Assembly (NCBI GenBank): GCA_963764225.1
Contig: CAVXRL010000007.1
Location: 531,510 to 595,509 of the forward strand
DNA: 64,000 nucleotides
Source of the DNA: an uncultured Actinomycetes bacterium
GTDB lineage: Bacteria > Actinomycetota > Thermoleophilia > UBA2241
Direction of reading: 5' to 3'
The notes beneath the pieces were generated by a model. The model did not search any database and was not told where the DNA came from. It saw only the letters and a program-made list of their open reading frames with translations. The position numbers and the translations under genes were made by a program. Numbering within the stretch: position 1 is the stretch's first letter; the number at the start of each line of letters is the position of its first letter. Positions 1 through 45,327 of this stretch are shown here, piece by piece.

Positions 1-450
1 CACGGAGATCTCGTGCGTGTCCATCTCGCTGAGGTAGTCGTTCAGCCGGGCGATGTCGCCGACGTCCTGGAGCGTGCACTCGCGGACCCGGCCGGTGTCC
101 ACGTCGACGACGGCGATGCCCTCGCTGAAGTTGGTGAAGGCGACCCGCCCCGGCTCCATGAGGAAGTCGTTCTTGGGGTCGCGGCCGCAGAGCACGTACT
201 TGCTCGGCGACGAGGCGATGGCCTCCTCGACGACGTGCGGCGGGATGCGTACCATGCGCGTCTCCGCGTCGATCGTGCAGCCGCCGTCCTTGAAGATGTC
301 CCGCGCGTCCTGGGCCTCGACGAACACGCCCGTGCGCTCGAGCACCTCGAGCGAAGCGAGGTGGATGTCGTCGAGCTCCGACTCGGTGAACACGTTCACG
401 CTCAGCCCGCGGCTGCGCATGCCGCCGGCGAAGAGGTTGCGCTTCACACC
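1..450 (-). CDS. MttB-superfamily (trimethylamine/quaternary-amine:corrinoid) methyltransferase, 5' part only; gene continues past window start
   Basis: Minus-strand translation of 1-450 gives GTG-KRNLFAGGMRSRGLSVNVFTESELDDIHLASLEVLERTGVFVEAQDARDIF..., typical of the MttB-family N-terminus. GGAGG lies 6 nt before the GTG at 450. The plus-strand ORF 13..471 is its shadow. Confidence 0.6.
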
Positions 451-496: not shown

Positions 497-1894
497 TCAT
501 GCGCGCGCGCCCAGCCCGGCGTGCTCCTGGAAGCGCGCCACGCTGTTGATGGGCACCTCGAGCACCTCGGCGATGCGGAACTTGGCTTCCATCGCCCCGG
601 CGTGCGTGGGGTACGTGAGCTCCTGCACGGGGACACGGCCGAGGCCGAGGTCGCGGCGCACGTCGTGCATGGCGATGGGGTCGGCGAGATCGGTGACGGA
701 GCAACCGAGCTTGCCGGCCACGTAGGTCTTGGCGTCGCTGAGGCGCATGCCCCGGGTCATCTGCATGCGGCCCACCAGATCTCCGGTGGTCCGCATCCCG
801 CCCATGCCCGAAGCGAGCGCGTGGGTGCACGCCATGCCCAGCGGGTCACCCACGCCCACCTACAACCCGTCGCACTTGAGGATGTCGACGAGCGCGCGGG
901 AGACGCGTGACACGGCGTCCGCCGGCGGGTAGGGGCTCATCGGCACGCCGCCGACCCCCATGCCGACGTTGGGGTGCACGGGGATCTCCGCGACCGCCAT
1001 CGCCGGCTTGATGATGGCGCACGCCCGGGCCACGTTCCAGGCGATCGACTTGGTGGTGTTGACGTTGACGGCCGGCCCGAACATCGTCGCGCCGGCCTCC
1101 TGGGCGACCTCGAGCTGCGCCTTGGGCCACATGCCGGCGAGCCGCTTGCCCTTGTAGGTGAGCTCGCCGTGCATGCCCAGCACACACTCGCTCGCCATGC
1201 CGAGCTCGATGCCGATGTCGGGGTAGCGACCCTTGATGGTCTCGACGGCGGTCAGGGTCGCCAGGAAGTCGCCGTCGCCCGCGGCGCCGGCGGTGTCGAA
1301 GTCCATGCCGTCGGCGCCGGCCTCCCACATGCCCTCGGCGACGAACACCATGTCGCGGACCGCGTGGTCGATGGCCGCCACTTGCGCGTCGCGCGCCTCG
1401 TCGATCTTGCCGAGCGGCATGAGCTCCGACCAGTTCGGGATGGGCCCGTCGGGCATGGAGTAGCGGCCCAGGTCCGGCATCGCGCCGTATTGGCAGGGCG
1501 CGATGAGGTTGAGCTGGGCCACCTTCATCGCCTGTGCCTCGAAGCTCAGGATGGTCTTGATGGCCTTGTACGAGTAGTCGATGGCGAACAGCTCGAGCAT
1601 GTCCGCTCCGCGGTGGCTCTGGTAGCTGTAGAGCTCGTCCACCCGGGTGCCGGAGTCGAGGTTGCCGGAGCCGTCGAAGCTGAGGCAGACCTCGTCGCCC
1701 ATGTCCACCGCGCTGAACTTCGACTCGCTCGAGAAGATGTCCAGCAGGTGGTCGATCTCCGCCTCGGAGAGCGGAGAGGCCTTCGCGCGGCGGGCCCCGA
1801 GCGCGGAGCCTGCCACCAGGTCTTCGCGGATCTCCGCCGGAGTCATCTCGACGAGCCCACCGTCGCCGAGGCGCGTACGTACAGGTCGCTCCAC
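497..1894 (-). CDS. mtbB: Dimethylamine:corrinoid methyltransferase MtbB, copy 1, with in-frame UAG (pyrrolysine) codon at 860-862
   Basis: ORFs 860..1894 and 497..859 are in the same frame, separated only by TAG. The junction reads ...[45 protein letters not shown], matching the MtbB Pyl site (...[14 protein letters not shown]...). Conserved motifs are present across the 465 aa (RLGDG, YGAMPDLG, GADGMDFDTAGAAGDGDF, GMHGELTYKGKRLAG, FGPAVNVNTTKS, VGGVPM). Start is GTG at 1894 and the final stop is TGA. Confidence 0.85.
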
Positions 1895-1923: not shown

Positions 1924-1943
1924 ATTAGTTAGTTGTGTAACTA
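1924..1943. promoter_or_regulatory. Candidate TetR operator, inverted repeat TTAGTTA-gttgtg-TAACTAA, 30 bp upstream of mtbB1 start, in the mtbB1/tetR divergent region
   Basis: Inverted repeat seen directly in the sequence. An almost identical site lies upstream of mtbB2. Confidence 0.5.
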
Positions 1944-2110
1944 ATTGGTGAGGTAGACTACCAGACGCGATTGGGGTGTCAAGGAGACGCGGATGCCGAT
2001 CCGGCGGCCGGCGCGCGGTGGTCTGGCTCGCCGGCCGCGCAATCCGGTAAGGTGCGCATCGATGAGAAAGCGGGCCGTGCTGCGGCGCCCGCGGGAGACG
2101 CGAGGGAGGG

Positions 2111-2743
2111 GTGGCGGGCTTGACCAGGTACGAGCTTCCGTTCGACGATCCCACCCCCGACCTGTCGCCGACGGCGGCCAGGATCCTGGAGGCGGCCAGG
2201 CAGGTCCTCTCGAGGGACGGGTTACGGGGGCTCACGTTCGAGATCATCGCCCGGCAGGCGGGAGAGAACCCGGCCCTGATCCGCTACCACTTCGGCAGCA
2301 AGGCCGGGCTCCTGTCCGCGCTCGTGGACTCCGTGCTCTACCAGGAGGCCGTGGAGCTCGTCGAGCGACTCACGGACGTGCCCGCCGGCGACGAGCGGCG
2401 CGCCCGGCTGCTCGACCTGCACGAAGGGCTGCCGGAGGACACGGACGCGTACCGCAACTTCTTCGAGCTGATCCCGCACATCCTGCGCGACGAAGAGCTC
2501 CGGCCGCACCTGCGCGGCCTGTTCGACTGGTACCGCAAGCTGGACGCGTGGGCGCTCAAGGACGCCGGCGCCACGGAGCCGGCGGCGCACATCGCGCCCC
2601 TGGCGCTGCTCACGGTGGCGATCGCCGACGGCATCGCGCTGCAGAAGCTGGCCGACCCGGGCCTGGACTTCGAGCCGGCCTTCGCGCTGTGGCGCCGGCT
2701 CGTCCTCGGCCACGTGGAGTCGGGCGGCGAAGCAGCCGGCTGA
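2111..2743 (+). CDS. TetR/AcrR family transcriptional regulator
   Basis: N-terminal HTH with the TetR signature ...ILEAARQVLSRDGLRGLTFEIIARQAGENPALIRYHFGSKAGLL, followed by a helical ligand-binding domain. Divergent from mtbB1. Confidence 0.8.
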   Translation: MAGLTRYELPFDDPTPDLSPTAARILEAARQVLSRDGLRGLTFEIIARQAGENPALIRYHFGSKAGLLSALVDSVLYQEAVELVERLTDVPAGDERRARLLDLHEGLPEDTDAYRNFFELIPHILRDEELRPHLRGLFDWYRKLDAWALKDAGATEPAAHIAPLALLTVAIADGIALQKLADPGLDFEPAFALWRRLVLGHVESGGEAAG

Positions 2744-2820: not shown

Positions 2821-4287
2821 TCAGCCGAGCTCGGCGTCGGCGGCGGCGCAGATCCTCGCCAGCTCCGCCGCCTTCCCCGCGTCGAGCGGCTCGGGCACGT
2901 AGTTCTCGAGGATGTCGAGCCCGCGCTCGCGCGCGACCTCCACGGGGTCGCGCAGGTGCGCGCCGTCCGGCCCGATCTCCTGCCCGATCGAGCGCTCGAC
3001 CGTCTCCTTCATGTGCCGGCGGGTGTGCGCCTGCCCCAAAAAGTGCCCGCCGGGCCCCACCGCGTCGATCACGTCGAGCGCCAGCTGCTCCTCGTCCAGC
3101 TCGAGGTCGCGGAACGCGCTCGCCGCGCGCCGGTAGAGGTCGTCGTCCAGCAGCAGGTGTTCGGGGGTGAACAGCTGGTACCGGTTGGTCAGCCCTATGG
3201 TGGTCATGAGTTCCGAGCCGACGATGCCGGCGAGCATGACGGTGTGCGCCGTCTCGGCCGCCGCCAGCCAGCTGCCCGGCAGGTCGTCGTCGGTGCCGGC
3301 GTACCCGGTCATCGCCGGCAGCCCGAAGTGGTGCACGAGCTCGCCGGGCAGGAACAGCCCCTTGTGGTTCAGCGGCGCCGTCGTGAGCGCCGCCGTCCGC
3401 GGGTCGGCGTGCACCGGCAGGGGGAAGAGGATCACGGGCGCCCCGGGGTGCGCCAGCTGCACGCACACCGTGGCGCTCACGAGCTCGGCGAAGCCCATGA
3501 CGAGGGCGCCGGCCTTGGTGGCCGGCGCCGTCGTCCCGTAGGTCGGCATGGTGACGAAGCACACGGGGACGCCGGCCTCGGCGAACACGAGCGCCGCCTC
3601 GATGCCGTCCCTGTCGTTGACGAGCGGCTGCACGGTGCCGATGAGGTTGCTCAGCGGGGGGCGGCGGCGCAGCCGCTCCGCCCCGCCCGCGACAACCGTC
3701 GCCATCTCGACCGCGTACCTCGCCTGGCGCTCACCCTGGACCATGCCCTGCAGGTGCTTGGCGGTGTTGTTCCAGGCCGCGTCGAGCTCGTGCAGCGTGT
3801 GCGTGTCGCCGGTGTCGGCGGCGGCCACGGTGGGCCACCAGAACTGCAGCGAGCCGAGGTAGTCGACCATGCGCGTGATCGCGGAGAGGTCGTCCTTGGT
3901 CGGCGCCCGGCGCAGCCCGGTGCGCCAGTCGACGACCTCGGTGCCGCAGCCGTTGGTGGTGTTGTACGTCTCGCCGCTGGAGAGGTCGAGGTCGAGGGTA
4001 CCGTCGCGCGACCCGAGCCGGAAGGTGCGCGGGGCTTCGGCCAGCGCTGCCGTCACGAGGTCGGGCGCGAAGCGCACGACGCCGGACGCGCGGTCCACCC
4101 GCGCACCGTGCCCGGCCAGGATGTCGAGCGCCTTGGGCGAGCCGAACCTGACCCCGGTGCGCTCGAGCACCAGCAGGACGGCCTCCTTGTAGCGGTCGAG
4201 CCTGGCGTCGTCGTAGAAGCGCACGGTGAAGTCCGAGCCGAGCGGCAGCAGCGGCTGCCGCCGGCTGAGATCGAGCTGAGAGGTCAT
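2821..4287 (-). CDS. MttB-superfamily methyltransferase (COG5598), non-pyrrolysine member with no in-frame stop; likely quaternary-amine or other methylamine:corrinoid methyltransferase
   Basis: 488 aa from MTSQLDLSRRQPLLPLGSDFTVRFYDD... to ...AADAELG. MttB-family motifs are present (GGHFLGQAHT, LFTPEHLLLDDD). The ATG overlaps the mtbB2 TGA (ATGA). The long ORF 2821..5136 in the track over-extends the N-terminus. Confidence 0.8.
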   Translation of the reverse strand: MTSQLDLSRRQPLLPLGSDFTVRFYDDARLDRYKEAVLLVLERTGVRFGSPKALDILAGHGARVDRASGVVRFAPDLVTAALAEAPRTFRLGSRDGTLDLDLSSGETYNTTNGCGTEVVDWRTGLRRAPTKDDLSAITRMVDYLGSLQFWWPTVAAADTGDTHTLHELDAAWNNTAKHLQGMVQGERQARYAVEMATVVAGGAERLRRRPPLSNLIGTVQPLVNDRDGIEAALVFAEAGVPVCFVTMPTYGTTAPATKAGALVMGFAELVSATVCVQLAHPGAPVILFPLPVHADPRTAALTTAPLNHKGLFLPGELVHHFGLPAMTGYAGTDDDLPGSWLAAAETAHTVMLAGIVGSELMTTIGLTNRYQLFTPEHLLLDDDLYRRAASAFRDLELDEEQLALDVIDAVGPGGHFLGQAHTRRHMKETVERSIGQEIGPDGAHLRDPVEVARERGLDILENYVPEPLDAGKAAELARICAAADAELG

Positions 4288-5681
4288 GCAGTCACCCCGA
4301 GCCCGGCGTTGGCCTTGAAGCGCTCCACCGAGTTGATCGGGATGTCCAGCACCTCGGCGATGTGGAACTTGGCCTCCATCGTGCCGGGGTGGTTCGGATA
4401 GGTGAGGTCCTGCACCTGCATACGCGCGAGGCCGAGGTCGCGCCTGAGGTCGTGCATGGCGATGGTGTCGCTGAGGTCGAGGACGGAACACCCGAGCTTG
4501 TCGGCGACGTACTGCTTGGCCTGCGGAAGGCGCAGGCCCCGGGTCAGTTGCATGCGAGCCACCAGATCTCCGGCGGTCCGCATCCCGCCCATGCCCGAGG
4601 CGAGCGCGTGTGACGAGGCCATCCCGAGGGGATCCCCGACCCCTACCTACAACCCGTCGATCTTGCAGATGTCGACCAGGGCTTTGGAGGCCCGGGACGT
4701 CGCGTCGACGGGCGGGTACGGGGTCATGGGCACGCCGCCGACCCCCATGCCGGCGTTCACGTGCACGGGGATCGTGGCCTCGGCGGTGACCGGCTTGATG
4801 AGCGCGCAGGAGCGCGCGGTGTTCCAGGCGAGCGACTTCGTCGTGTTCACGTTGACGGCCGGCCCGAAGATCGTGGCGCCGGCCGCCTCGCAGGCGCGGA
4901 GCTGGCCGAGCGGCCACTGGCCGGCCAGCCGCGTGCCCTCGTACTCGAGCTGTCCGTGCATGCCGAGCACGAGCTCGGAGGCCTGGCCGATCTCGATGCC
5001 GACGTCGGGATAGGCGTCGCGCAGCCGGCGGGCGACGCGCAGGGTGGCGAGCAGGTCGGCGTCGCCGGAGGCGCCGGCGGTGTCGAAGTCGAGCCCGTCC
5101 ACGCCGGCCTCGATCATGCCCTCCGCCACCAGCCACATGTCGTGCTCGAGGTGCCCGGCGGCCTCCTCCTGGGCGGCGCGCGCCTCCGCGATCTTGCCGA
5201 GCGGCATCAGCTGCGACCAGTTGGGCGCCGGGCCGTCGGGCTGCGAGTAGCGGCCCAGGTCCGGCATGGCCCCGTAGTTGAGCGGCACGACCGTCTGCTG
5301 CTGCGCGTCCTTGAGCATCTGCGTCTGGAACGGCAGCACGGTGCGCACGGCCTTGTACGAGTAGTCGTGGTGCCAGAGCTCGATCATGTCGGCGCCGTGG
5401 TGGTTCTGGTAGATGACCTGCTCGAGCACCGGTGAGGAGATGTCCGCGTTGCCGGAGCCGTCGAAGCTCAGGACGACCTCGTCGCCGTAGTCGACGGAGC
5501 TGAACCGGGCCGCGGAGCTGAAGATGTCCAGGAGGTGGGCGATCTCGTCGTCGCTCAGCGGTTCGACCTTGGCCCGCTTGACGGCCGCCTCCGAGCCGGC
5601 GTGCAGGTCGGCCTCGAGCTCCGCGCGCGTCAGCTCGGTCAGCGACCCGTCACCGAGCCGCGTCGGGATGCGGTGTGCCAT
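4284..5681 (-). CDS. mtbB: Dimethylamine:corrinoid methyltransferase MtbB, copy 2, with in-frame UAG (pyrrolysine) codon at 4647-4649
   Basis: ORF 4647..5681 ends at TAG 4647-4649 and the same frame continues as ...[41 protein letters not shown]... to TGA at 4284. About 70% identical to copy 1. RBS GGGAGG lies 5 nt before the ATG at 5681. Confidence 0.85.
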
Positions 5682-5717: not shown

Positions 5718-5737
5718 TTAGTTAGTCGTATAACTAA
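5718..5737. promoter_or_regulatory. Candidate TetR operator, inverted repeat TTAGTTA-gtcgta-TAACTAA, 37 bp upstream of mtbB2 start
   Basis: Same half-sites and 6-nt spacer as the site at 1924-1943. Confidence 0.5.
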
Positions 5738-5825: not shown

Positions 5826-6119
5826 TCAGAATTCCTCCGCCTCGGCGCCGGCCGGCGGCTCCTGCATGACGCCGTCCGCGTCCTGGCGCTCGGCGGCCAG
5901 TCGCTCGATGCGGTCGACGAGCTCGCGCGGAGCCTCTCCGCTGGAGAGCGCCTCACGGTCGACGGTCCACTGCCCCTGCTCGTCGAAGCGGCACGCCTCC
6001 CAGCCGCTCTCGCACACCTCCACGAGGCCCTCGCCGGTCAGCGGCAGCCCGAACTGCCGCCGGATGACCTCGGCGGCCTCGTCCACGCTGAGTCTGTCCT
6101 GTTCGAAATCCATCGTCAC
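5826..6119 (-). CDS. Hypothetical small acidic protein (97 aa)
   Basis: Intact ORF with GC3-rich codon usage. No recognisable domain. Confidence 0.4.
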   Translation of the reverse strand: MTMDFEQDRLSVDEAAEVIRRQFGLPLTGEGLVEVCESGWEACRFDEQGQWTVDREALSSGEAPRELVDRIERLAAERQDADGVMQEPPAGAEAEEF

Positions 6120-17094: not shown

Positions 17095-17397
17095 ATGAAG
17101 AAGACCTTGATCGTGATGTCGGTCGTAGCCTTGGTCCTGGCCGTCATGGCCGTGCCGGTACTGGCGGCGCCAGGCGGCGCGCCGGCGGCGCACGGCGTCG
17201 ACGGCAAGACTTTCGGCGCGGCCGTGAGCGGGCTTGCTCAGAGCTCGCCCGGCGCCGTAGCCGCGCACGTGAGCGGCGGCAACTCCGGCGGCATGCCCGC
17301 CGCGCACGGACTCTCCGGCGCTGACTTCGGCGCCGCAGTCAGCGGCCTCGCGCAGAGCGCCCCGGGAGCCGTTGCAGCTCACGTCTCCGGCAAGTAG
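17095..17397 (+). CDS. Small secreted repeat protein (two copies of about 30 aa: FGAAVSGLAQS-PGAVAAHVSG)
   Basis: Signal peptide MKKTLIVMSVVALVLAVMAVPVLAAPG, then an internal tandem repeat. Confidence 0.5.
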   Translation: MKKTLIVMSVVALVLAVMAVPVLAAPGGAPAAHGVDGKTFGAAVSGLAQSSPGAVAAHVSGGNSGGMPAAHGLSGADFGAAVSGLAQSAPGAVAAHVSGK

Positions 17398-29367: not shown

Positions 29368-30675
29368 TCAGCAGAGGTCGTCGACGGCGGCGCCGTCCGG
29401 CAGGCCGCTGGTCACCGGCTCCGCCGGCACGTGCCCGGCCCGCCGCGCCCGCGCCGCGCGGAGCGCCTCGAGCGCCGCCGGGAACGGCTGCAGCGCCCGG
29501 TCGAAGATGCCGAGGCTGAAGGCGATGACGAGCCCGTAGTTGGTGATCGGCACGCCTTGCTGGCGGCAGCGCAGGATGCGTCCCAGCATCGCCCTGCGGT
29601 TGAACGTGCAGGCGCCGCAGTGGATGACGAGGTCCCACTTCGAGAGGTCCGCGGGGAAGTCGTGTCCCTGCATGTGCTCGATCTCCAGCTTGCCGCCCAC
29701 GTACTGCGTGAGCCAGCGCGGGATCTTGACGCGCCCGATGTCCTCGGCGATGGGGTGGTGGCTGCAGGCCTCGGCGATGAGGATCCTGGCGCCGCTCCTG
29801 AGGTCGTCGACCGCGAGCGTGCCCTCCACCTGGCTCACCAGGTCGCCCTTGAAGCGGCTGAAGAGGATGCTGAAGCTCGTCATCGGCACCTCCGGCGGCG
29901 TGTCGGCCGCCACCTTGAGGAAGGCCTGGGAGTCGGTGACCACGAGCTTGGGCGGCCGGTTGAGCCGCTCGATGGCGTTGCGCAGCTCCCGCTCCTTGAC
30001 CACCAGCGCCATCGCGTCGCTGTCCATGAGGTCGCGGATGCTCTGCACCTGCGGCAGGATCAGGCGCCCGCGCGGCGCCTCCTTGTCGATGGGCACCACG
30101 AGCACGGCGAGCTCGCCGGTGTTGACCAGGTCGCCGAGGATCGACGGGTTGTCGATGAAGTCCGGCGGCGCCGCGTCGAGCAGCGCCTGGCGGAAGTCGA
30201 GCACGCCGCGGCCCTCGCTCGCGGCGGTCAGGACGGGCTTGAGCTTGAGCTCCTCCAGGCGCCTGACCGGCGCCGGCCGGTCCACGAGGTCGCTCTTGTT
30301 GAAGACGACGACGATGGGCGTCTCGCGCTCGAGGAACTCGTCGAGGATGCCGTCCTCGTACTCGCCCCAGCTGCCCGCCTCGGTGACCAGCACGCCGAGG
30401 TCGGTGCGGTCGAACACCTGCGTGGTCTTCTTCGCCCGCAGCTCGCCCAGTACGCCGACGTCGTCGATGCCGGCGGTGTCGATGAAGAGGACCGGGCCGA
30501 GGGGCAGCAGTTCCATCGGCTTCTCGACCGGATCGGTGGTGGTGCCGGCGAAGTCGCTGACGATGCTGACCTCCTGCCGGGTGATGGCGTTGAGCAGGCT
30601 CGACTTGCCGACGTTGCGGCGGCCGAAGATCCCGATGTGGAGGCGCATGCCCTTGGGTGCGTCCATCAGGCCCAT
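29368..30675 (-). CDS. hydF: [FeFe]-hydrogenase maturation GTPase HydF
   Basis: GRRNVGKSSL P-loop, DTAG, NKSD and a C-terminal CxH...HCGAC FeS-binding region. Confidence 0.85.
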   Translation of the reverse strand: MGLMDAPKGMRLHIGIFGRRNVGKSSLLNAITRQEVSIVSDFAGTTTDPVEKPMELLPLGPVLFIDTAGIDDVGVLGELRAKKTTQVFDRTDLGVLVTEAGSWGEYEDGILDEFLERETPIVVVFNKSDLVDRPAPVRRLEELKLKPVLTAASEGRGVLDFRQALLDAAPPDFIDNPSILGDLVNTGELAVLVVPIDKEAPRGRLILPQVQSIRDLMDSDAMALVVKERELRNAIERLNRPPKLVVTDSQAFLKVAADTPPEVPMTSFSILFSRFKGDLVSQVEGTLAVDDLRSGARILIAEACSHHPIAEDIGRVKIPRWLTQYVGGKLEIEHMQGHDFPADLSKWDLVIHCGACTFNRRAMLGRILRCRQQGVPITNYGLVIAFSLGIFDRALQPFPAALEALRAARARRAGHVPAEPVTSGLPDGAAVDDLC

Positions 30676-30695
30676 GCGGAGGTCCTTTCGGTGCT

Positions 30696-32078
30696 TCAGT
30701 CTTCCACGCCGCGGCCGCGGGTCTGGGGGGTCCCCAGACGGCACACGGCCTCGGCGGTGAGCAGTTCGTCGTACTGCTCGGCGGTGAGCAGGCCGTCGGC
30801 GAGGACGACGTCGCGGATGGCCGCGCCCTGCGCCTCGGCGCGCCGGGCGACGTCGCAGGCGGCGTCGTAGCCGATCTCCGGCACGAGCGCCGTGGCGGCG
30901 GCGCTCGAGGCGCGCACGTGCGCGGCGCAGCGCTCCTCGTCGGCCTCGATGCCCTCCACGCAGAGCCGCCGCAGCACCTCGTCGGCGCTCGCCAGCAGCC
31001 GCAGGCTCTCGAGCAGGCAGTCGGCGATCAGCGGCAGGAACGCGTTGAGCTCCAGGTTGCCGAGGCCGGCGGCGGTGGCGATCGTGGCGTCGTAGCCGAA
31101 CACCAGCAGCGCCACCTGGCTCACGGCCTCGGGGATCACCGGGTTGACCTTGCCGGGCATGATGCTCGACCCGGCCTGCCGCCGCGGCAGCCGGATCTCG
31201 CCGAACCCGGCCTCGGGGCCGGAGCTGAGCAGGCGCAGGTCGCCGCTGATCTTGAGCAGCGTCGCGGCGTGCGCCTTGAGGATGCCGGAGACCTCGACGA
31301 AGACGTCGACGTTCTGCGTGGCCTCGGTGAGGTTCTCCGCGCGGGCGAACCCGATGCTGGTGAGCTCGCGCAGCGCGTCCACCACGCGGAAGATGTACTG
31401 CCGCGGCGCGGCGAACCCGGTGCCGATGGCCGTGCCGCCGAGGTTGACCACCCGCAGCCGCTCCTCGCACTTGTAGATGCGCCAGCGGTCGCGGTTCAGC
31501 GCCTCGGCGTAGGCGCCCATCTCGCGTCCGAGCGTGGTGAGCACGGCGTCCTGCAGCTGCGTGCGCCCGACCTTGACCACGTGGGCGAACTCCTGCTCCT
31601 TGGCCTGGAACGCCTCCTGCAGCGCGACGACCTGGTCCTCGAGGCGGTGCAGCAGGTCGATGGCCGCCACGCGCAGGGCGGTGGGGAAGGTGTCGTTGGT
31701 GCTCTGGTGGAGGTTGAGGTCGTCGGCGGGGGAGACGCGGGCGTAGGCGCCGAGCGGCTCGCCGAGGAGCTGCAGGGCGCGGTTGGCGAGCACCTCGTTG
31801 ACGTTCATGTTGGTGCTCGTCCCGGCTCCGCCCTGCAGGCGGTCGGCGACGATGTGCTCGTCGAGCAGGCCGTCGGCGAGCTCGCGGCAGGCGCGCTCGA
31901 TGGCGTCGGCCTTGGCGTCGTCGCCCTCCCAGGCGCCGAGCGCGCGGTTGGTCCTGGCGCAGGCGAGCTTGACGACGCCGAACGCCCGCGCGAGCTCCGC
32001 GTGCACCGGGCGTCCGGCGAGCGGGAAGTTCTCGAGCGCCCGCTCGGTGTGCGCGCCGTGCAGGCTGCCCGCCGGCAC
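30696..32078 (-). CDS. aspA: Aspartate ammonia-lyase / class II fumarase family protein (hyd-cluster-associated AspA-like); true start may lie slightly upstream
   Basis: GSSIMPGKVNP signature and TNDTFPTA. Confidence 0.75.
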   Translation of the reverse strand: MPAGSLHGAHTERALENFPLAGRPVHAELARAFGVVKLACARTNRALGAWEGDDAKADAIERACRELADGLLDEHIVADRLQGGAGTSTNMNVNEVLANRALQLLGEPLGAYARVSPADDLNLHQSTNDTFPTALRVAAIDLLHRLEDQVVALQEAFQAKEQEFAHVVKVGRTQLQDAVLTTLGREMGAYAEALNRDRWRIYKCEERLRVVNLGGTAIGTGFAAPRQYIFRVVDALRELTSIGFARAENLTEATQNVDVFVEVSGILKAHAATLLKISGDLRLLSSGPEAGFGEIRLPRRQAGSSIMPGKVNPVIPEAVSQVALLVFGYDATIATAAGLGNLELNAFLPLIADCLLESLRLLASADEVLRRLCVEGIEADEERCAAHVRASSAAATALVPEIGYDAACDVARRAEAQGAAIRDVVLADGLLTAEQYDELLTAEAVCRLGTPQTRGRGVED

Positions 32079-32128
32079 GGCGACCTCACCGAGCAGGTCG
32101 TGTTCGCTAGCGCGTGTCGCTCATGGGC

Positions 32129-32393
32129 TCAGGGATGGCCGAACACCATCTTCTGGACGTGCACGCCCTCGATCGCGTCGAGCTTGTCGACCATCGTCTG
32201 CGCCGCGGCCTCGTCGCCGAAGAACTCGATCAGCACGATGCCGCTCGGTGAGCAGAAGGACGCGTCGACGTCGTGGAGCCCGACGCGCGTCTTGATGTTG
32301 CAGCCGTACTCGGTGAAGACGGCCTGCACGTCGCGCGCCTCCTGCAGCCTGTCGCGTGACGTGGATGCCGAGGATGATGTGGTCGTCGCTCAC
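32129..32393 (-). CDS. TM1266-like putative [FeFe]-hydrogenase system regulator (ACT-like small protein); apparent frameshift near 32355
   Basis: N-terminus MSDDHIILGIHV in one frame (ORF 32121..32393). Remainder ...DRLQEARDVQAVFTEYGCNIKTRVGLHDV...KMVFGHP in the adjacent frame (ORF 32129..32329). Confidence 0.55.
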
Positions 32394-32451
32394 GCTGGCC
32401 CTCCGTGGTCGTGGTCGTGGCTGGCTGGTCGTGCGCTCGCGGCGTGCCGGC

Positions 32452-33855
32452 TCAGCAGAGCACGTCCCGGTCGCCGGCGCGCACCTTGGCCAGCATCTTC
32501 TCGGTGAACTCGCGCCGCACCGGGTCCATCTCCGCGACCGTCTTCGCGATGGCGGTCTCGCCGATCGCGCGCGTCTCCTCGCTGCCGTAGTCGATGAGGT
32601 ACTCGAGGTACGTGCTGAGGGCGTTGGGGTCGCAGTGGTGCTTGATGTCGCCCGGCTTGGCCAGGTCCATGAAGTCCATGCCCGTGCGGCCCAGGCGGTA
32701 GCAGGCGGTGCAGAAGCTGGGGATGAAGCCGAGCTCGGAGACGTCGCGGATGACCTCGTCCAGCGTGCGGTGGTCGCCGAGCTGGAACTGGGCCGCGTCG
32801 AACTCCTCGTCCTCTTCGTAGCCGCCGGGGTTGGTGCGGCTGCCGGCGCTGATCTGGCTGATGCCGAGGGCGAACGTCTCGCTGCGCAGGTTGGCGGTCT
32901 CCCGCGTGCTCAGGATCATGCCGGTGTAGGGGACGGCGAGCCGCAGGATGGCGACGATCTTGCGGAAGTCGACGTCGCTCACCGGCTGCGGCGGGTGACT
33001 GGCCATGTCGGAGCCGCTGGCGGGCTCGAGGCGCGGCACGCTGATGGTGTGCGGGCCGACGCCGTACGCCCGCTCGAGCTCACGGATGTGCTGCAGCATG
33101 GCGAGGATCTCGTAGCGCCAGTCGGCGAGGCCGAAGAGCACGCCGATGCCGACGTCGTCGATGCCCGCCTCCATGGCGCGGTGCATGCCGGTCACGCGCC
33201 AGTCGAAGTCCTTCTTCTTGCCGCCGACGTGCACCGCGTGGTAGGTCGCGCGGTGGTAGGTCTCCTGGAACAGCTGGAACGTGCCGATGCCGCTCGCCTT
33301 GAGCTCGCGGAACTGGTCCACCGGGAGCGGCGCCACGTTGACGTTGACGCGGCGGATCTCGCCGTTGCCGCGCTTGACGTCGTAGATGGTCGCGATGCTG
33401 TCGAGCACGTACTGGAAGCCGCCGTCCTTGGGGTAGGACTCGCCGGCCACGAGCAGGATGCGCTTGTGACCCTGGTCGACCAGCACCTCGACCTCGTGAC
33501 GGATCTCCGCCTGCGTGAGCGCCCGGCGGTGGAGCTCCTTGTTGCGCACCCGGAACGCGCAGTAGAGGCAGTCGTTGTTGCACAGGTTGCTGATGTACAG
33601 CGGGGCGAAGAGCACGAGGCGCGCGCCGTAGATGGCCTCCTTGACCTCGCGCGCCGTGCCGAACAGCTCCGCCATCAGCTCCGGGTCGCTGATCGACGAG
33701 AGCACGGCCACCTCGTCCATCTCCAGCCCGTGGAGCTCGCGCGCCTTGGCGAGGATCTCGCGGACCCGCGCGGCGTCCTTGGTGGCCGCGGACTGCATCG
33801 CCTGGGCGATGGCGGCCTCGTCGATGAACTCTCCTGTGTCTACAACGGCTGTCAT
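32452..33855 (-). CDS. hydG: [FeFe]-hydrogenase maturase HydG (radical SAM tyrosine lyase)
   Basis: CNNDCLYC radical-SAM motif and C-terminal CTACYRLGRTG auxiliary-cluster motif. About 467 aa from MTAVVDTGEFID. Confidence 0.85.
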   Translation of the reverse strand: MTAVVDTGEFIDEAAIAQAMQSAATKDAARVREILAKARELHGLEMDEVAVLSSISDPELMAELFGTAREVKEAIYGARLVLFAPLYISNLCNNDCLYCAFRVRNKELHRRALTQAEIRHEVEVLVDQGHKRILLVAGESYPKDGGFQYVLDSIATIYDVKRGNGEIRRVNVNVAPLPVDQFRELKASGIGTFQLFQETYHRATYHAVHVGGKKKDFDWRVTGMHRAMEAGIDDVGIGVLFGLADWRYEILAMLQHIRELERAYGVGPHTISVPRLEPASGSDMASHPPQPVSDVDFRKIVAILRLAVPYTGMILSTRETANLRSETFALGISQISAGSRTNPGGYEEDEEFDAAQFQLGDHRTLDEVIRDVSELGFIPSFCTACYRLGRTGMDFMDLAKPGDIKHHCDPNALSTYLEYLIDYGSEETRAIGETAIAKTVAEMDPVRREFTEKMLAKVRAGDRDVLC

Positions 33856-33860
33856 GGAAC

Positions 33861-35228
33861 TTACTCCCTCGGGTCGACAGCGACAGGCTCGGCGCAGTCC
33901 GCCGTAGCCGGGATCTCGAAACTGAACTCGGCCCACTCACCCCGTTTGGAGTCGGCCGTGATGCGCCCGCCGTGCAGCTGGACGATGCGCCAGGAGTTGT
34001 AGAGCCCGACGCCGGTGCCGCGGCGGCTTTTGAGGGCCGGGTCGTCCAGGCGCGAGAAGCGGCGGAAGAGCTTGTCCTGCTGCGCCGTGTCGAAGCCCGG
34101 CCCGCTGTTCCACACGCTGATGCGCAGGCGTTCGCCGAGCTTGCGGTCGAACAGCACCTCGGCCTTGACGCGGATGTCGCCGCCCTCGTTGCCGTACTTG
34201 ATGGCGTTGTCCAGCAGGTTGACGGTGACGATGCGCAGCAGGGTGGGGTCGCAGCACACCGGCGGCAGCGCCGGCGACGGCATGCAGACCATGAGGTGCA
34301 CGCCGTGCGAGTCCGCCTGGGGGCGGACCAGGTCGACGGCCTCGTCGAGGACCTCTTCCATGACGTCCACGCGCGAGCGCGTGGCGAGCGTGAGCTCGCC
34401 GCCCTCGACGCGCGCCAGGTCGAGGTACTCGCGCACGAGGCTGAGCAGGTACTGCCCCTTGCGCGCCATGCTCTCGACCTTGGCCTTCTGCTCGGGAGTG
34501 AGGTCGCCGAGATAGCCCTGGGCGAGGACCTGGGCGTCCGTCACCATGGACGCCACGGGGCTCTTGAGCTCGTGGCTCACGAACCCGAGCATCTGGGTGT
34601 ACGCGTAGTTGGCGTCTTCGAGCTGTTCGATGCGCCAGGCCTTCTCCACGGCCTGGCTGAGGCGCTCGGTGATGGCCATCTGCAGCTCGATGTGCTGTGG
34701 GCCGTACATGTGGGGCCGCAGCGAGCTGCGGAAGATGAACCCGACCACGCGGCCCTCGACGCTGAGCGGGCAGGTGAGGCTGGAGCGCACGCCCTCGCGC
34801 ACGAGCAGGCGCGAGGAGCGGCTCTGCGGGCGGTCGTGGCTGTACGCCTCGAGGTCGCCGATGATGCGCGGCAGCCCGTTCTGCAGCACCTCGCTCAGCG
34901 TGCTGTTCTGAAGCGACTCGCGGTACCCCTGCTTCACGTACAGACGGTCGTAGGACGCCCGGTTGTAGTAGCTGGTGACCGAGCCGCCGTGCTCGTCCAC
35001 GAACGCCAGGCCCATGCGGTCGCAGGGGATGAGCGCCTGGGTGTGCTCGAAGAGGTAGTCGACGATGGCGCGCAGCGACGGCCTGGCGGCGATCTTCTGA
35101 TTGACGGTGCGGAGCACCGTCCGCGCCTCCGGGCTGATGGGTCTGAGGGCGTCGCCGTCACGGAACGGGTCGACGTAGGTGACGGCGGGGCGCTGGGTCT
35201 GCTGGGGTTCGTCGGCCATCGGCCTCAA
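33861..35228 (-). CDS. GAF-domain sensor histidine kinase
   Basis: N-terminal GAF-like region, HisKA (FVSHELKSP) and HATPase (NLLDNAIKY...GTGVGL). Confidence 0.75.
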   Translation of the reverse strand: MRPMADEPQQTQRPAVTYVDPFRDGDALRPISPEARTVLRTVNQKIAARPSLRAIVDYLFEHTQALIPCDRMGLAFVDEHGGSVTSYYNRASYDRLYVKQGYRESLQNSTLSEVLQNGLPRIIGDLEAYSHDRPQSRSSRLLVREGVRSSLTCPLSVEGRVVGFIFRSSLRPHMYGPQHIELQMAITERLSQAVEKAWRIEQLEDANYAYTQMLGFVSHELKSPVASMVTDAQVLAQGYLGDLTPEQKAKVESMARKGQYLLSLVREYLDLARVEGGELTLATRSRVDVMEEVLDEAVDLVRPQADSHGVHLMVCMPSPALPPVCCDPTLLRIVTVNLLDNAIKYGNEGGDIRVKAEVLFDRKLGERLRISVWNSGPGFDTAQQDKLFRRFSRLDDPALKSRRGTGVGLYNSWRIVQLHGGRITADSKRGEWAEFSFEIPATADCAEPVAVDPRE

Positions 35229-35298
35229 GTGTACCTCGTGCGGGCGGCCGGGCTGCCCTGAGTCGGGTCAGCCCGGCCGCCGCTGGTCTTGCGTCAGG

Positions 35299-37233
35299 TC
35301 ACGCCTGCGGGATGTGCTTGCCGCGGGCGATGTACTCCGTGTGCAGGAGCTTGTGGCTCTTGTGGCCGCACGGGCCGTCGGTGAGGAACTCACCGTAGGT
35401 GGCGAGCACGGCCGGGTTCTCGTGCGACTTGCGCACCGCGTAGGCCGAGTCCTCCGAGTAGATGGCCCTGGCCCGGGCGGCACGGATGTCCGCGCTGGTC
35501 GGGATGGGCTGGCCGCCGCCGCCCAGGCAGCCGCCCGGGCAGGCCATGAACTCGATGAAGTGGCACTCGCTGAACTTGCCGCCGGCCTTGATGTCGTCCA
35601 TGACCTTCTTGGCGTTGGCGGTGCCGTGCGCCACGGCCACCTTGAGCGTCGCGCCGTCCAGCCAGTCCCAGTCCGGCACGAGGTGCGCCACGATCTCGGG
35701 CACCGGGCCGACCTTGGGGACGGTGATCTCGGCGTACTTGACGCCCTCGAAGCCGCGCACCGGGATGATGTCGCCGTGGTCGTAGATGCTCTCGATCTTC
35801 TCCCCCGTGACCATCTCGATGACGGTGCGCAGGGCGGCCTCCATCACGCCGCCGCTGGCGCCGAAGATGACGCCGGAGCCGGTGGCCGAGCCGAAGGGGT
35901 CGTCGAAGTCGCTCTTCGGCAGCGTCGGCACGTGCAGGCCGGCCTCCTTGAACATCTTGCCGAGCTCGCGCGTGGTGAGGCCGTAGTCGACGTCCTGGAA
36001 GCCCGAGTCGACCATCTCCGGCCGGTTGCACTCGAACTTCTTCGCCGAGCAGGGCATGAGCGCGACGCTCACGATCTTGGCGGGGTCGACGCCCATCTTC
36101 TCGGCGTAGAACGTCTTGATGAGCGCGCCGAACATCTGCTGCGGGCTCTTGGCGCTCGAGGCGTTGGGCAGGTACTCGGGGTAGAAGTGCTCGAGGTACT
36201 TGACCCAGCCCGGCGAGCAGCTGGTGAACTGCGGCAGAGCCACGCTCTCGTCCTTCTCCACCAGCGCCTTGTAGAGCCGGAGGATGAGCTCGGTGCCCTC
36301 CTCGATGATGGTGAGGTCGGCGGTGAAGTTGGTGTCGAACACCTTGTCGAAGCCGGCGCGCCGCAGGGCGGTGTTCATCTCGAACGTGACCGGCGTGCCC
36401 GGCTCGAGGCCGAACAGCTCGCCCATCGCCGAGCGCGGCGCGGGCGCCGTCTGGATGACGACGTGCTTGTCGGGGTCGTCGATCGCCGCCCACACCTCGT
36501 CGGTCTCGTCCTTGGCGTACAGGGCGCCGACGGGGCAGCGGTTGACGCACTGCCCGCAGTTGATGCAGACGGCGGTGCCGAGGGGCATGTCCTCGAACGT
36601 CTCGATGGTGACCTTGTTGCTGCGCCCGACGGCCTCCAGCACGCCGACCTCCTGCACGTCGATGCAGGTGCGGATGCAGCGGCGGCAGCGGATGCACTTG
36701 TTCATGTCGCGGACGACGCTGTAGCTCGAGTCGTCCACCGCGAACGCCGGCTCCTCGGGATGGCCGTAGGGGTAGCTCGTCACCCCGTACTCCTCGGCCA
36801 GCGTCTGCAGCTCGCAGTTGCCGTTGCGCACGCAGCTGTAGCACTCGCCGCAGTGCTCGCTGAGGAGCAGCTCGAGCACGTGCTTGCGCGCCATGCGTAC
36901 CTTGCGCGTGTGCGTGTTGATCTTCTGCTGGTTCACGACCGGGAACGTGCAGGCGGGCTGCAGCGTGCGCTGGCCCTCGACCTCCACGACGCACATGCGG
37001 CACACGCCGGCTACGTCGAGGTCCGGGTGGTCACACAGCGTGGGGATCTTGATCCCGGCGGTCTTGGCGGCCTCGAGGATGGTCGTCCCGAAGGGGACCT
37101 TGGCCTCGACGCCGTCGATGACGACGCTCACCTGGGCGCCGATGGCGTCCGGGCTGGTGGTGGTGATGACGCGCCGGTGCTGCTGCGAGAGCGGCGCGCG
37201 ATGGATCGGCGTGGTCGGGTTGCTCATGCTCAC
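35299..37233 (-). CDS. hydA: [FeFe] hydrogenase catalytic subunit HydA (set 1; group A3 multimeric/bifurcating-type architecture)
   Basis: N-terminal 2Fe-2S ferredoxin domain, 4Fe-4S motifs, and H-cluster motifs TSCSPGW, MPCSAKK and EFMACPGGCLGGGGQP. Confidence 0.9.
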   Translation of the reverse strand: MSMSNPTTPIHRAPLSQQHRRVITTTSPDAIGAQVSVVIDGVEAKVPFGTTILEAAKTAGIKIPTLCDHPDLDVAGVCRMCVVEVEGQRTLQPACTFPVVNQQKINTHTRKVRMARKHVLELLLSEHCGECYSCVRNGNCELQTLAEEYGVTSYPYGHPEEPAFAVDDSSYSVVRDMNKCIRCRRCIRTCIDVQEVGVLEAVGRSNKVTIETFEDMPLGTAVCINCGQCVNRCPVGALYAKDETDEVWAAIDDPDKHVVIQTAPAPRSAMGELFGLEPGTPVTFEMNTALRRAGFDKVFDTNFTADLTIIEEGTELILRLYKALVEKDESVALPQFTSCSPGWVKYLEHFYPEYLPNASSAKSPQQMFGALIKTFYAEKMGVDPAKIVSVALMPCSAKKFECNRPEMVDSGFQDVDYGLTTRELGKMFKEAGLHVPTLPKSDFDDPFGSATGSGVIFGASGGVMEAALRTVIEMVTGEKIESIYDHGDIIPVRGFEGVKYAEITVPKVGPVPEIVAHLVPDWDWLDGATLKVAVAHGTANAKKVMDDIKAGGKFSECHFIEFMACPGGCLGGGGQPIPTSADIRAARARAIYSEDSAYAVRKSHENPAVLATYGEFLTDGPCGHKSHKLLHTEYIARGKHIPQA

Positions 37234-37246
37234 TCCTCCGCTCTCG

Positions 37247-38443
37247 TCAGGCGCTCGGGGCGCGGTTTGCGATCTCGTCGCCGAAGCCCTCGAGGATCGA
37301 GAGGAAGGCGCTCGGGCTGGTCTGGCCGAGGCCGCACTTCGAGGCGACCTGCATGGTGGCGGCGAGGTCCTTGACGCTCTTGAGGAACTCGGGCGGGCAC
37401 TCGCCCTTCTTGAGGAGCTTGACGGCCTCGAGCATCTGGGGGTTGCCCAGACGGCACGGGGTGCACTGGCCGCAGCTCTCCTCGACGAAGAAGTCGAGGA
37501 AGTTCTCGGCCACGTCGAGGATGTCGCGGTCGGGGCCGATGACCATCACCGAGCCGCCCGTCGGGATGTCCTCGAACGCCAGAGCGCGCGTGAAGTCCCT
37601 TGCGGGGACGCACACGCCGCTGGCGCCGCCGATCTGCACCGCCTTGGCGCCCTCACCGCCGACCTCCCTGAGCAGGTCGGCCACGGTGATGCCCCACGGG
37701 AACTCGTACACGCCGGGCTTCTCGCAGTCGCCGCTGATGCTGAACAGCTTGTAGCCGGTCGACTTGTCGGTGCCGAACGTCTTGAACCAGTCACAGCCCC
37801 GGCAGAAGATCGCCGCCACCGAGGCGAGCGTCTCCACGTTGTTCACCACGGTGGGGTTGTTGAGCAGGCCGGCGACCACCGGGAACGGCGGGCGGTTGCG
37901 CGGCTCGCCGCGGAAGCCCTCGAGGCTCTCGATGAGGGCCGTCTCCTCGCCGCACACGTAGGCGCCGGCGCCCATGGCCACGAGGATGTCGAAGTCGAAG
38001 CCCTCGACGCCCATGATGTTGCGCCCGAGCAGGCCGGCCGCGCGCCGCCGCTGGATGACCTCGTTGAGGTGCGGGCGCAGGTAGGTGTACTCGGCGCGCA
38101 GGTAGACGATGCCGAGGGTCGCGCCGATGGCGCGGCCGCCGATGGTCATGCCCTCGAAGACGAGGTCGGCGAACCGCGTGAGGATGACCCGGTCCTTGAA
38201 CGTGCCGGGCTCGCCCTCGTCGGCGTTGCAGATGATGTACTTCTGGTCGGCCTTCTCCGCCGCGCAGAAGCCCCACTTCATGCCGGTGGGGAACCCGGCG
38301 CCGCCGCGGCCCTTGAGGCCGCTGTCACGCATGAAGTCGACGAGGTCGGCGCGGCTCATGGCCAGGGCGGCCGTGAGGCCGGCCTCGGCCTCGATGGTCT
38401 CGTAGGTGAGGGCGTTGCCCTGCGTCTCGATCGTGGCAGGCAT
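37247..38443 (-). CDS. hydB: Hydrogenase NADH-binding flavoprotein subunit HydB (NuoF-like, short form)
   Basis: [20 protein letters not shown] and ESCGQCTPCR motifs. Confidence 0.85.
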   Translation of the reverse strand: MPATIETQGNALTYETIEAEAGLTAALAMSRADLVDFMRDSGLKGRGGAGFPTGMKWGFCAAEKADQKYIICNADEGEPGTFKDRVILTRFADLVFEGMTIGGRAIGATLGIVYLRAEYTYLRPHLNEVIQRRRAAGLLGRNIMGVEGFDFDILVAMGAGAYVCGEETALIESLEGFRGEPRNRPPFPVVAGLLNNPTVVNNVETLASVAAIFCRGCDWFKTFGTDKSTGYKLFSISGDCEKPGVYEFPWGITVADLLREVGGEGAKAVQIGGASGVCVPARDFTRALAFEDIPTGGSVMVIGPDRDILDVAENFLDFFVEESCGQCTPCRLGNPQMLEAVKLLKKGECPPEFLKSVKDLAATMQVASKCGLGQTSPSAFLSILEGFGDEIANRAPSA

Positions 38444-38446
38444 CGC

Positions 38447-38947
38447 TCACGCCTCCTTCGACGCGGCCCGGCAGGCGGCCACGATCTCTTTGGCGGTCTC
38501 GGGAGTGACCCGCGTGTGGACTTCGTCGTTGACGAGCAGAGCGGGGCCCTGGTCGCACATGCCGACGCAGCTGGCCCACTCGAGCGTGAACAGGCCGTCG
38601 TCGGTGGTCTGGTCGAAGTCGATGCCGAGCTCGGTCTTGAGCGCGTCGGCGACGGCGTCCTTGCCGGCGAAGTCGCACGAGAGCGTGCCGCACAGGCGCA
38701 CCACGAACTGCCCGGTGGGGGCGCCGTGGAGGAACGCGTAGAACGACGCGACGCTGTAGACCTCCACGGGGTGGATGTCGAGCACGTCGGCGATGGTCTG
38801 CATGGTCTCCGAGTCGATCTCGTGGAACCGCCTCTTGACATCCGCGAGGATCGGGATGAGAGAAGAGCGGCCGGGGCCGAGCTTCTCGACGAGGCTCTCC
38901 ACCTCGGCCCTGAGCTGGTCCTGATTGGTGATGATGGTCGCTGGCAT
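38447..38947 (-). CDS. hydC: Hydrogenase subunit HydC (NuoE-like 2Fe-2S thioredoxin-like)
   Basis: C-x4-C ... C-x3-C (CGTLSCD ... CVGMCDQGP). RBS GAGAGGA lies before the ATG at 38947. A GTG at 38962 is an alternative start. Confidence 0.8.
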   Translation of the reverse strand: MPATIITNQDQLRAEVESLVEKLGPGRSSLIPILADVKRRFHEIDSETMQTIADVLDIHPVEVYSVASFYAFLHGAPTGQFVVRLCGTLSCDFAGKDAVADALKTELGIDFDQTTDDGLFTLEWASCVGMCDQGPALLVNDEVHTRVTPETAKEIVAACRAASKEA

Positions 38948-38958
38948 CTGGAGTCCTC

Positions 38959-39332
38959 TCACTGCTCGAGGAGCTTCTTGACCTTGGCGACCAGCGTCTG
39001 AGGCTCCACCGGCTTGGGCTGGAACTCATCGACCGGCACGATCTCGCCGTCCTTGTCGATGTTGAGGCCCATGGCGGCGTTGACGCTGGTGAGCATGATG
39101 ATCGGCAGCTCATTACCGTTCTTGCGGATCTCGCGCGCCATGCGGAGGCCGTCGTCGGGCTCTTCCATCATGACGTCGAGGATGAGGAGGTCGGGCTTGA
39201 CCTCATCAAGCTTCTTCATGCCGTCGGCGCGATTGGCTGCGCCGATGATCTCGTAGCCCTCGCGCTCGAGGACCAGGCGGCCGGCATCGACGATGTCCGG
39301 GTCGTCGTCAATGATGAGAATCTTTGGCACCA
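38959..39332 (-). CDS. Single-domain response regulator (CheY-like REC), GTG start
   Basis: KILIIDDDPDIVDAG...LILDVMMEEPDDG...KP. Confidence 0.7.
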
Positions 39333-39702
39333 CGCTCTCCTCTGTCCGTTTGCGTTCCCCCGGGGCGGGGTCGGCCCGCCCTCCACAAGCCCGATCCACT
39401 GCCCGGTCCCGCACCCATCCCGGAGAGACCGCTGCGCGGCAGGGACGGGTGGAGGAAGGACGATCGGTCAGGCCACACACTCCACTGGATCAACGGCAAG
39501 AACTTGGCCTCAAATCCGCTCATTTTCTAACACATCAACGGCAGCTTGTGCAAGGGTGCACGAGCGTCTGAAGTTAGTATCGCACATCCTCGAACAGGCA
39601 CAAGCCGTACCTTCTGGCGAGGTGAGGGAGACGATTGTGGACAGCTCGGAGTGCGCGGCGGGGAAGAGGCGACGCCGGGGCGGCCCTTGACGCGGCGAAG
39701 CC

Positions 39703-40933: not shown

Positions 40934-40935
40934 GA

Positions 40936-42990: not shown

Positions 42991-43008
42991 GGCACTGCCA
43001 CCGTCACG

Positions 43009-43416: not shown

Positions 43417-43537
43417 GCTCCGCCTTCAGTATAGATGCTGCGTCTTCTTCGGCGGCGGCCCGGGCGGCCCCGGTCTCCCGGGGCCGCCCTGGGGCGCGCC
43501 GCCCACGCGCCCGGCCGCCGTCTTGCTCAGACGCGTC

Positions 43538-45316: not shown

Positions 45317-45327
45317 GCTCTCCTTGC

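Follow-up and report, generated by a model that had tools for sequence, protein, structure and literature searches.

The analyzed window is a stretch of 64,000 nucleotides (nt) from contig CAVXRL010000007.1 (611,128 bp) of an uncultured soil bacterium of the class Thermoleophilia (Actinomycetota; assembly GCA_963764225.1), with G+C content (GC) of about 0.70 throughout. At its left end the window carries mtbB1, a gene of the dimethylamine:corrinoid methyltransferase family with one in-frame TAG codon, here interpreted as a pyrrolysine (Pyl) codon. Around mtbB1 are a second paralog (mtbB2), an MttB-superfamily gene, a divergent gene for a TetR-family regulator, two copies of a palindrome, and the beginning of an mttB gene (Table 1).

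The mtbB1 gene and its in-frame UAG codon

The reading frame of mtbB1 runs from GTG (1894..1892) to TGA (499..497), a length of 466 codons when the stop is counted; the sole internal stop is codon 345, TAG at 862..860 (cta on the plus strand), preceded by residues VDILKCDGL and followed by VGVGDPLGM. With X at the TAG, the 465-residue product aligns with positions 4–462 of 463 of the Pfam family PF09505 (Dimeth_Pyl; 540 bits, E = 4e-162) and scores 417.5 bits with the NCBIfam equivalog TIGR02368, for which the cutoff is 369.1. The full-length match to PF09505, together with the above-cutoff score with TIGR02368, shows one gene with one TAG rather than two open reading frames adjacent by chance; hence, the view of the preliminary description of this DNA, that a single TAG splits a 465-residue MtbB homolog, agrees with the translation and with both family models. 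An alternative start, ATG at 1846, is less favoured than GTG at 1894, since the TRLGDG motif, which is kept in MtbB2, lies upstream of this ATG. A sequence search of the PDB yielded no MtbB homolog. By analogy with the family, the substrate of MtbB1 would be dimethylamine.

The products of mtbB1 and mtbB2 are 67% identical in a gap-free alignment, and in both genes TAG occupies codon 345. In a scan in which each species was covered by one genome, 33 related loci were found, many of them from long-read 'MFD' metagenome-assembled genomes (MAGs) and nearly all from Thermoleophilia MAGs, the contig of the window not being among them; the closest is 96% identical, and the GC of the related Thermoleophilia loci is 0.68–0.73. 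For the window and 35 related loci combined, the homologous codon is TAG in 84/84 mtbB copies (40–96% identity, several paralog classes); no copy has TGA or TAA there, or any sense codon. Downstream of the TAG, 78–124 sense codons follow in frame, at least 102 in all but three low-identity copies. A search for MtbB1 homologs among 5.8 billion proteins shows the same break: the best 120 homologs (65–91% identity) are nearly all annotated with about 344 residues, ending at the same site as the mtbB1 TAG.

We also scored the sequence downstream of TAG codons for coding potential, using codon usage trained on the window's own genes. Here, the 120 codons past the TAGs of mtbB1 and mtbB2 score +0.48 and +0.41 per codon, respectively (the gene mean is 0.61), and the sequence past six other TAG stops in the window scores from −0.23 to −1.01. 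Comparison of the post-TAG part of mtbB1 with nine orthologs reveals 15–29 synonymous and 13–17 non-synonymous codon differences; synonymous differences prevail, and this part is under purifying selection in the mtbB1 frame.

The covariance model of PYLIS_2 (Table 1) matches both paralogs, with 62.6 bits (E = 1e-13) for mtbB1 and 67.2 bits (E = 5e-15) for mtbB2, the gathering score being 36, and in both genes model position 1 aligns with the U of UAG. The Rfam consensus UAG-AUA-GGU-GUC-GGC-GAC-CCU-AUG-GGU-AUG corresponds to IGVGDPMGM after the UAG, the equivalent of VGVGDPLGM in mtbB1. Since position 1 of PYLIS_2 falls on the mtbB1 UAG, the TAG is at the curated Pyl codon of mtbB, confirming the assignment to the known Pyl site that had earlier been made from the flanking residues. 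As judged from these comparisons, the mtbB1 TAG is a conserved pyrrolysine codon and not an error.

Within PYLIS_2, a hairpin is predicted in mtbB1, in mtbB2, and in the consensus of 78 distinct mtbB copies (RNAalifold). Standard pairs are observed in 96.2% of the hairpin pair cells, compared to 85.2% in shuffles (0/500 reach the observed value) and 29–47% with slid partners, all for mutually related copies and for a structure derived from the same alignment that it is scored on. Compensatory changes from C-G to G-C at synonymous sites are seen in 11 sequences for pair 81/90, where no sequence has a broken pair, and in 18 sequences for pair 78/93. The Gly codon of the loop region is GGA in 78/78 distinct copies, and GGA-GAY is invariant, low-GC lineages included; the genomes of these copies span GC from 0.44 to 0.75, and at high GC another Gly codon would be expected. 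Have et al. (2013; PMC3639795) had already pointed out a canonical mtbB RNA structure, and the hairpin is a corroboration of this structure and of the Rfam model, not a discovery.

Pyrrolysine machinery of the lineage

The search for pyrrolysyl-tRNA synthetases started from a PylS profile of the M. mazei, D. hafniense, and M. alvus sequences, the M. mazei and D. hafniense queries being exact when compared to PDB entries 2q7e and 3dsq. The best 120 of 3,754 matches are all Methanosarcina-like or Desulfitobacterium-like. A library of representatives at 50% identity contains 194 PylS-like representatives, several of them rich in Arg and poor in Lys, in keeping with an origin from high-GC DNA; a profile of Arg-rich PylSc reveals a large clade whose members are about 65–78% identical to one another. 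The NCBI name of one member of this clade, P0519 (GCA_041648235.1), is 'pyrrolysine--tRNA(Pyl) ligase large subunit [Thermoleophilia bacterium]'. A metagenome scan with the Thermoleophilia PylSc clade yielded 80 contigs, 63 of them with GC of at least 0.65.

The locus L038, part of a 640,917-bp contig with GC 0.72, has a pyl region of about 11 kb that carries BacA, Amidase_3, PylSc, corrinoid gene, PylSn, tRNA-Pyl, PylD, frameshifted PylC, and a radical-SAM gene. Its PylSc scores 316 bits with TIGR02367 (cutoff 178) and its PylSn 121.5 bits with TIGR03912 (cutoff 51); tRNA-Pyl with the anticodon CUA is at 17173–17245 of the locus, and is also found on L071, L073, L082, and L085, all with GC of about 0.70. 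PylD matches PF21455 and scores 129 bits with TIGR03911, below the cutoff of 150, on this frameshifted long-read contig. The pylC gene of L121 is intact, with 414 residues, and that of L038 is frameshifted and seen as two fragments. The radical-SAM gene, which occupies the pylB position and runs off the locus end, is probably pylB. Thus, the lineage encodes pylT, pylSc, pylSn, pylC, and pylD. The earlier argument, that an MtbB with UAG-encoded Pyl implies a pyl system, has strong comparative support in the conserved TAG, its presence in the second paralog, the two PYLIS_2 matches, and the constraint on the downstream frame; the five genes, and probably pylB, are present in the same class.

Two further observations concern the structure of the cassette. 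At 18368–20727 of L038, pylC (two fragments) and pylD are broken, and both are intact in the short-read contigs L121 and L122 with the same synteny; rather than gene decay, the breaks probably reflect frameshifts at homopolymers introduced in assembly. Between pylSc and pylSn there are SAM-methyltransferase, corrinoid, and radical-SAM genes (10903–13378 on L038, 8858–11550 on L121), none of which is part of the classical pyl operon.

The synteny BacA–Amidase_3–pylSc is common to L038, the NCBI Thermoleophilia contig, L053, L075, and L079. In the latter three, metagenome loci with GC 0.70–0.75, mtbB directly follows pylSc: L079 has a whole mtbB with an in-frame TAG, and L053 and L075 retain only the post-TAG part, the contig ending inside the gene. 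The sample assembly that yielded L038 also contains an mtbB operon that is 88% identical to that of the window and has the same order MttB–TetR–mtbB–mttB. The links between the cassette and mtbB1 are, hence, at the level of the class, the synteny, the sample, and the adjacent paralog.

Pyl-type genes and PylRS in Actinobacteria have already been published, and mtbB1 is a new example, not a new phenomenon. Guo et al. (2022; PMC9630628) list two Actinobacteria with PylRS genes in a set of 81 bacteria, and the passages of Ellenbogen et al. (2023; PMC10805028) devoted to these genes describe Actinobacteriota MAGs that express Pyl-encoding mttB and mtbB. A full-text literature search retrieved nothing specific on pyrrolysine in Thermoleophilia, the topic being thinly covered. 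In view of these two papers, of the Thermoleophilia PylSc named as such by NCBI, and of the 63/80 high-GC PylSc contigs, the initial statement that encoded pyrrolysine is rare in bacteria and not established at this GC was too strong.

Gene neighbourhood and related loci

Table 1. Features of the window; positions are counted from its first nucleotide.
Feature	Position	Strand	Remarks
mtbB1, dimethylamine:corrinoid methyltransferase	497..1894	minus	465 codons + stop, one in-frame TAG
UAG codon 345 of mtbB1, pyrrolysine codon by comparison	860..862	minus	TAG in 84/84 copies; PYLIS_2 position 1
PYLIS_2 (Rfam RF02509, 'Pyrrolysine insertion sequence mtbB')	763..862	minus	model positions 1–100 of 100, begins at UAG
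Hairpin within PYLIS_2, predicted	767..794	minus	66–96 nt past UAG; 7-bp core stem, AGAU loop, invariant GGA-GAY
mtbB2, second paralog	4284..5681	minus	465 codons; TAG at 4647–4649; PYLIS_2 at 4649..4550
mttB, first 149 codons, cut by window edge	1..447	minus	PF06253, E = 5e-20
Palindrome TTAGTTA-N6-TAACTAA, copy 1	1925..1944		31 nt upstream of mtbB1
TetR-family regulator, divergent	2111..2743	plus	PF00440 and PF17940; same position in relatives
MttB-superfamily gene without in-frame stop	2821..4287	minus	488 residues; PF06253, E = 1e-55, positions 31–498 of 500
Palindrome TTAGTTA-N6-TAACTAA, copy 2	5718..5737		37 nt upstream of mtbB2
Small gene, unassigned	6119..5826	minus	
HydF	29368–30675		
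Radical-SAM/BATS maturase	32452–33855		
HydA-like catalytic subunits (two)	35299–37233 and 43538–45331		
NuoF-like partners of the HydA-like genes	37247–38443 and 45328–47325		
Hydrogenase-domain histidine kinase fusion	40936–42990		

In relatives, the gene order is TetR, mtbB (344 and about 110 residues), mttB (327 and about 130 residues), a B12-binding protein, and an unsplit MttB; some relatives have a permease between the corrinoid gene and the unsplit MttB, and an ABC transporter after MttB. The orthologs of the mttB at the window edge (about 20, 71–97% identical) have TAG at codon 328, followed by about 160 more codons. Judged from these orthologs, the edge mttB is probably also of the Pyl type, and would be the third Pyl gene at this locus. 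In the syntenic relatives, the corrinoid gene (B12-binding_2/B12-binding) is the second gene after the mtbB1 ortholog. The cognate corrinoid gene, reported as missing in the preliminary description, is indeed not found in the window; however, this is an effect of the window being cut inside mttB, and the gene is expected just beyond position 1.

The start of the gene at 2821..4287 overlaps the mtbB2 stop by four bases, an arrangement of translational coupling. Cluster members of its protein are named trimethylamine methyltransferase family protein, and the gene probably encodes a methyltransferase of the non-Pyl kind that acts on a quaternary amine. The AT-rich palindrome has exactly two matches in the 64 kb, none being expected by chance; in 13 related loci, both of the homologous sites have it. 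Its probable role is that of an operator for the divergent TetR-family regulator.

The relatives carry at least four to five divergent classes of TAG-containing mtbB, with up to five copies within 21 kb. These classes differ in the residues directly after Pyl, and may differ in substrate. One class has tRNA-Thr(UGU) directly downstream of mtbB in L021–L024, L026, and L028–L032 (e.g., at 11452–11527 of L021). Among the close relatives, all others of which are labelled Thermoleophilia, L007 (JBLMXT010000224.1; cluster member MGE5229213.1; GC 0.71) bears the NCBI label 'Deltaproteobacteria bacterium'; its mtbB is 92% and its MttB about 90% identical, and this MAG is probably mislabelled or mis-binned.

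The same window contains an [FeFe]-hydrogenase island at 29368–47325 (Table 1). To our knowledge, such an island is unusual for Thermoleophilia; its gene content suggests an anaerobic, possibly electron-bifurcating metabolism.

Probable decoding of UAG 345, rival explanations, and known systems

Generally, Pyl-tRNA(CUA) inserts pyrrolysine at UAG in competition with the release factor, and Pyl is the catalytic residue of methylamine methyltransferases, binding and activating the methylamine, from which the methyl group passes to the Co(I) corrinoid. We consider it very probable that mtbB1 is a functional gene whose UAG 345 is decoded as pyrrolysine by a split system of the type seen in the lineage. 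The codon would be read by tRNA-Pyl(CUA) charged by the split PylSc/PylSn synthetase, with pyrrolysine made from lysine by PylB, PylC, and PylD, the genes residing elsewhere in the genome; the PYLIS_2 hairpin in the 100 nt past each UAG may favour read-through over termination. With Pyl inserted at UAG 345, as its sequence context suggests, the full-length enzyme of 465 residues would activate dimethylamine and transfer the methyl group to the Co(I) form of the corrinoid protein, presumably encoded two genes downstream, beyond the left edge of the window and the intervening UAG-containing mttB; from there, the methyl group would pass to tetrahydrofolate. The two operons with a TAG-containing mtbB (mtbB1–mttB and further genes, and mtbB2 with the mttB-like gene), having the same palindrome before each and the divergent regulator gene between them, may form a small regulon, in which the TetR repressor bound to the palindrome would keep both operons off when the substrate is absent.

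Several observations weigh against this interpretation. The 64-kb window contains no tRNA with the CUA anticodon; no PylSc, PylSn, PylC, PylD, putative PylB fragment, or pylT of the lineage type, lineage-specific queries included, as had been noted from the sequence at the outset; and no corrinoid protein gene. Neither tRNA(CUA) nor PylS is found within the 10-kb flanks of the 35 related mtbB loci (L001–L035), and no contig or MAG was found in which the pyl cassette and a close mtbB1 ortholog demonstrably occur together. Finally, six of the 46 confident terminators in the window are UAG, and hence TAG is not depleted as a stop, the depletion having been proposed earlier as a check; we regard this as neutral. 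Known Pyl-decoding bacteria likewise keep TAG as an ordinary stop codon. Global reassignment of UAG is ruled out, as the sequence downstream of the six other TAG-ended genes is non-coding-like; UAG still being an ordinary stop in this genome, its decoding in mtbB1 would be by competition, not by reassignment.

The rival explanations differ in what they make of the TAG and of the missing cassette. A sequencing or assembly error, named at the outset as what would overturn the Pyl assignment, or a pseudogene inactivated by a nonsense mutation is suggested by the frameshift errors that the related long-read contigs do have (pylC and pylD on L038); however, an artefact or a pseudogene is expected to have an unconserved stop and a decayed downstream frame, whereas both paralogs of the window and all the other copies, from independent short-read and long-read assemblies, have TAG and never TGA or TAA, the downstream frame is open and conserved, and the PYLIS_2 match runs from the UAG onward. 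The uniform TAG, together with the open and constrained frame, excludes this explanation in practice, and we assign it next to no probability. In the absence of pyrrolysine, which the lack of pyl genes in the window might favour, the product could be two polypeptides, one of 344 residues and one of about 120 residues re-initiated at GTG after the TAG, or else UAG could be read as a standard amino acid. The codon after the TAG in mtbB1 and mtbB2 is GTG or GTA, and GTG could be a start codon; however, across the copies it is GTN, ATC, ATA, GCG, or GCA, and re-initiation is rejected, as this codon is not conserved as a start. Further, strict conservation of TAG, and not of just any stop codon, is a signature of a specific UAG decoder; the lineage encodes such a decoder, with pylSc adjoining a TAG-containing mtbB on the same DNA, and the established biochemistry of methylamine methyltransferases has Pyl in the active site. 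Both forms of this explanation are, hence, very improbable.

A further possibility is that the genes are of the Pyl type, while the source genome has lost the cassette or never had it, the mtbB copies being orphans acquired by transfer and non-functional or only partly functional. The absence of the cassette from the window, with none tied to the source MAG, is consistent with it. On the other hand, two mtbB paralogs and the downstream mttB are intact, with purifying selection past the TAG, both in the source genome and in a dozen relatives at the level of species, and such intact, selected Pyl genes are hard to explain without a decoder; moreover, the cassette of the lineage is in a conserved chromosomal neighbourhood (BacA–Amidase_3–pylSc) with no obvious mobile element. 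Orphan genes of this kind are, therefore, improbable, if somewhat less so than the preceding alternatives. Returning to decoding by the lineage-type split system, pylT and pylS are very likely present in the same genome as mtbB1, and we infer that the source genome itself carries the pyl cassette.

The mtbB1 locus leaves the understanding of how pyrrolysine works unchanged, but is a clean and well-supported case of Pyl coding in a high-GC actinobacterium and strengthens a sparse literature, in essence a multi-omics paper and a PylRS survey. As these publications indicate, Pyl-dependent methylamine use is not confined to methanogens, Firmicutes, and Deltaproteobacteria but reaches Actinomycetota that are abundant in soils and wetlands. 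These genes are broken up by gene callers (344 and about 110 residues for mtbB, 327 and about 130 for mttB), so that metabolic surveys under-count or mislabel them. The PylSc/PylSn and tRNA-Pyl of Thermoleophilia are a divergent GC-rich variant of possible interest for genetic-code expansion, and the expanded mtbB paralogs are candidates for new Pyl-dependent substrate specificities. Two aspects are less ordinary, namely how many divergent mtbB paralogs with a TAG a genome can carry, and the presence of the hydrogenase island in the same window. A bolder and rather doubtful suggestion is that Thermoleophilia of soil, peat, and lake sediment form a large, mostly unrecognised reservoir of pyrrolysine decoding, whose expanded sets of TAG-containing mtbB paralogs have possibly diversified toward methylated amines beyond dimethylamine; if true, this would point, together with the hydrogenase island, to anaerobic H2-evolving methylamine oxidation by high-GC actinobacteria, competing with or feeding methylotrophic methanogens.

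Among known systems, MtbB1–3 of Methanosarcina belong to the same family over the full length (TIGR02368, PF09505), with a single UAG at the same codon, (I/V)GVGDP(M/L)GM after it, and the next 100 nt matching RF02509. The differences are that the host here is a bacterium with GC of about 0.70; that the gene is in an operon with a Pyl-type mttB, next to a divergent TetR gene and a palindromic putative operator; that the relatives carry at least four to five divergent TAG-containing mtbB paralogs within 21 kb; and that the corrinoid protein cannot hand the methyl group on to coenzyme M, the acceptor in methanogens, tetrahydrofolate being the presumed acceptor here.

The lineage cassette resembles those of Desulfitobacterium hafniense (pylT–pylSc–pylBCD–pylSn) and Acetohalobium arabaticum in the split synthetase, the CUA anticodon of the tRNA, and the presence of PylC and PylD, and its PylSc shares about 52% identity with that of D. 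hafniense; as in other bacterial split-PylS systems, UAG is still in use as a stop. In contrast to both, the host belongs to Actinomycetota, not to Firmicutes or Deltaproteobacteria. Instead of forming one compact operon, the cassette genes are spread across about 11 kb in the BacA–Amidase_3 neighbourhood, and there are many mtbB paralogs here, whereas few Pyl genes are present in D. hafniense.

The closest published parallel by phylum is the set of Actinobacteriota MAGs from Stordalen Mire (PMC10805028), which are likewise uncultured and high-GC and, in the passages on these genes, are described as having amber-truncated mtbB and mttB. Pyrrolysine is deduced in those passages from gene truncation, and they do not describe a pyl cassette; here, the conservation of TAG, PYLIS_2, and the pyl genes of the lineage are documented. 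One related locus, L025, has the isolate name 'palsa_647', of a palsa type that resembles the names of the Stordalen Mire MAGs. Finally, the neighbour at 2821–4287 resembles the non-Pyl members of the MttB superfamily, e.g., the glycine betaine methyltransferase MtgB, in being full-length with no in-frame stop, whereas the fold family of MtbB, PF09505, is a different one.

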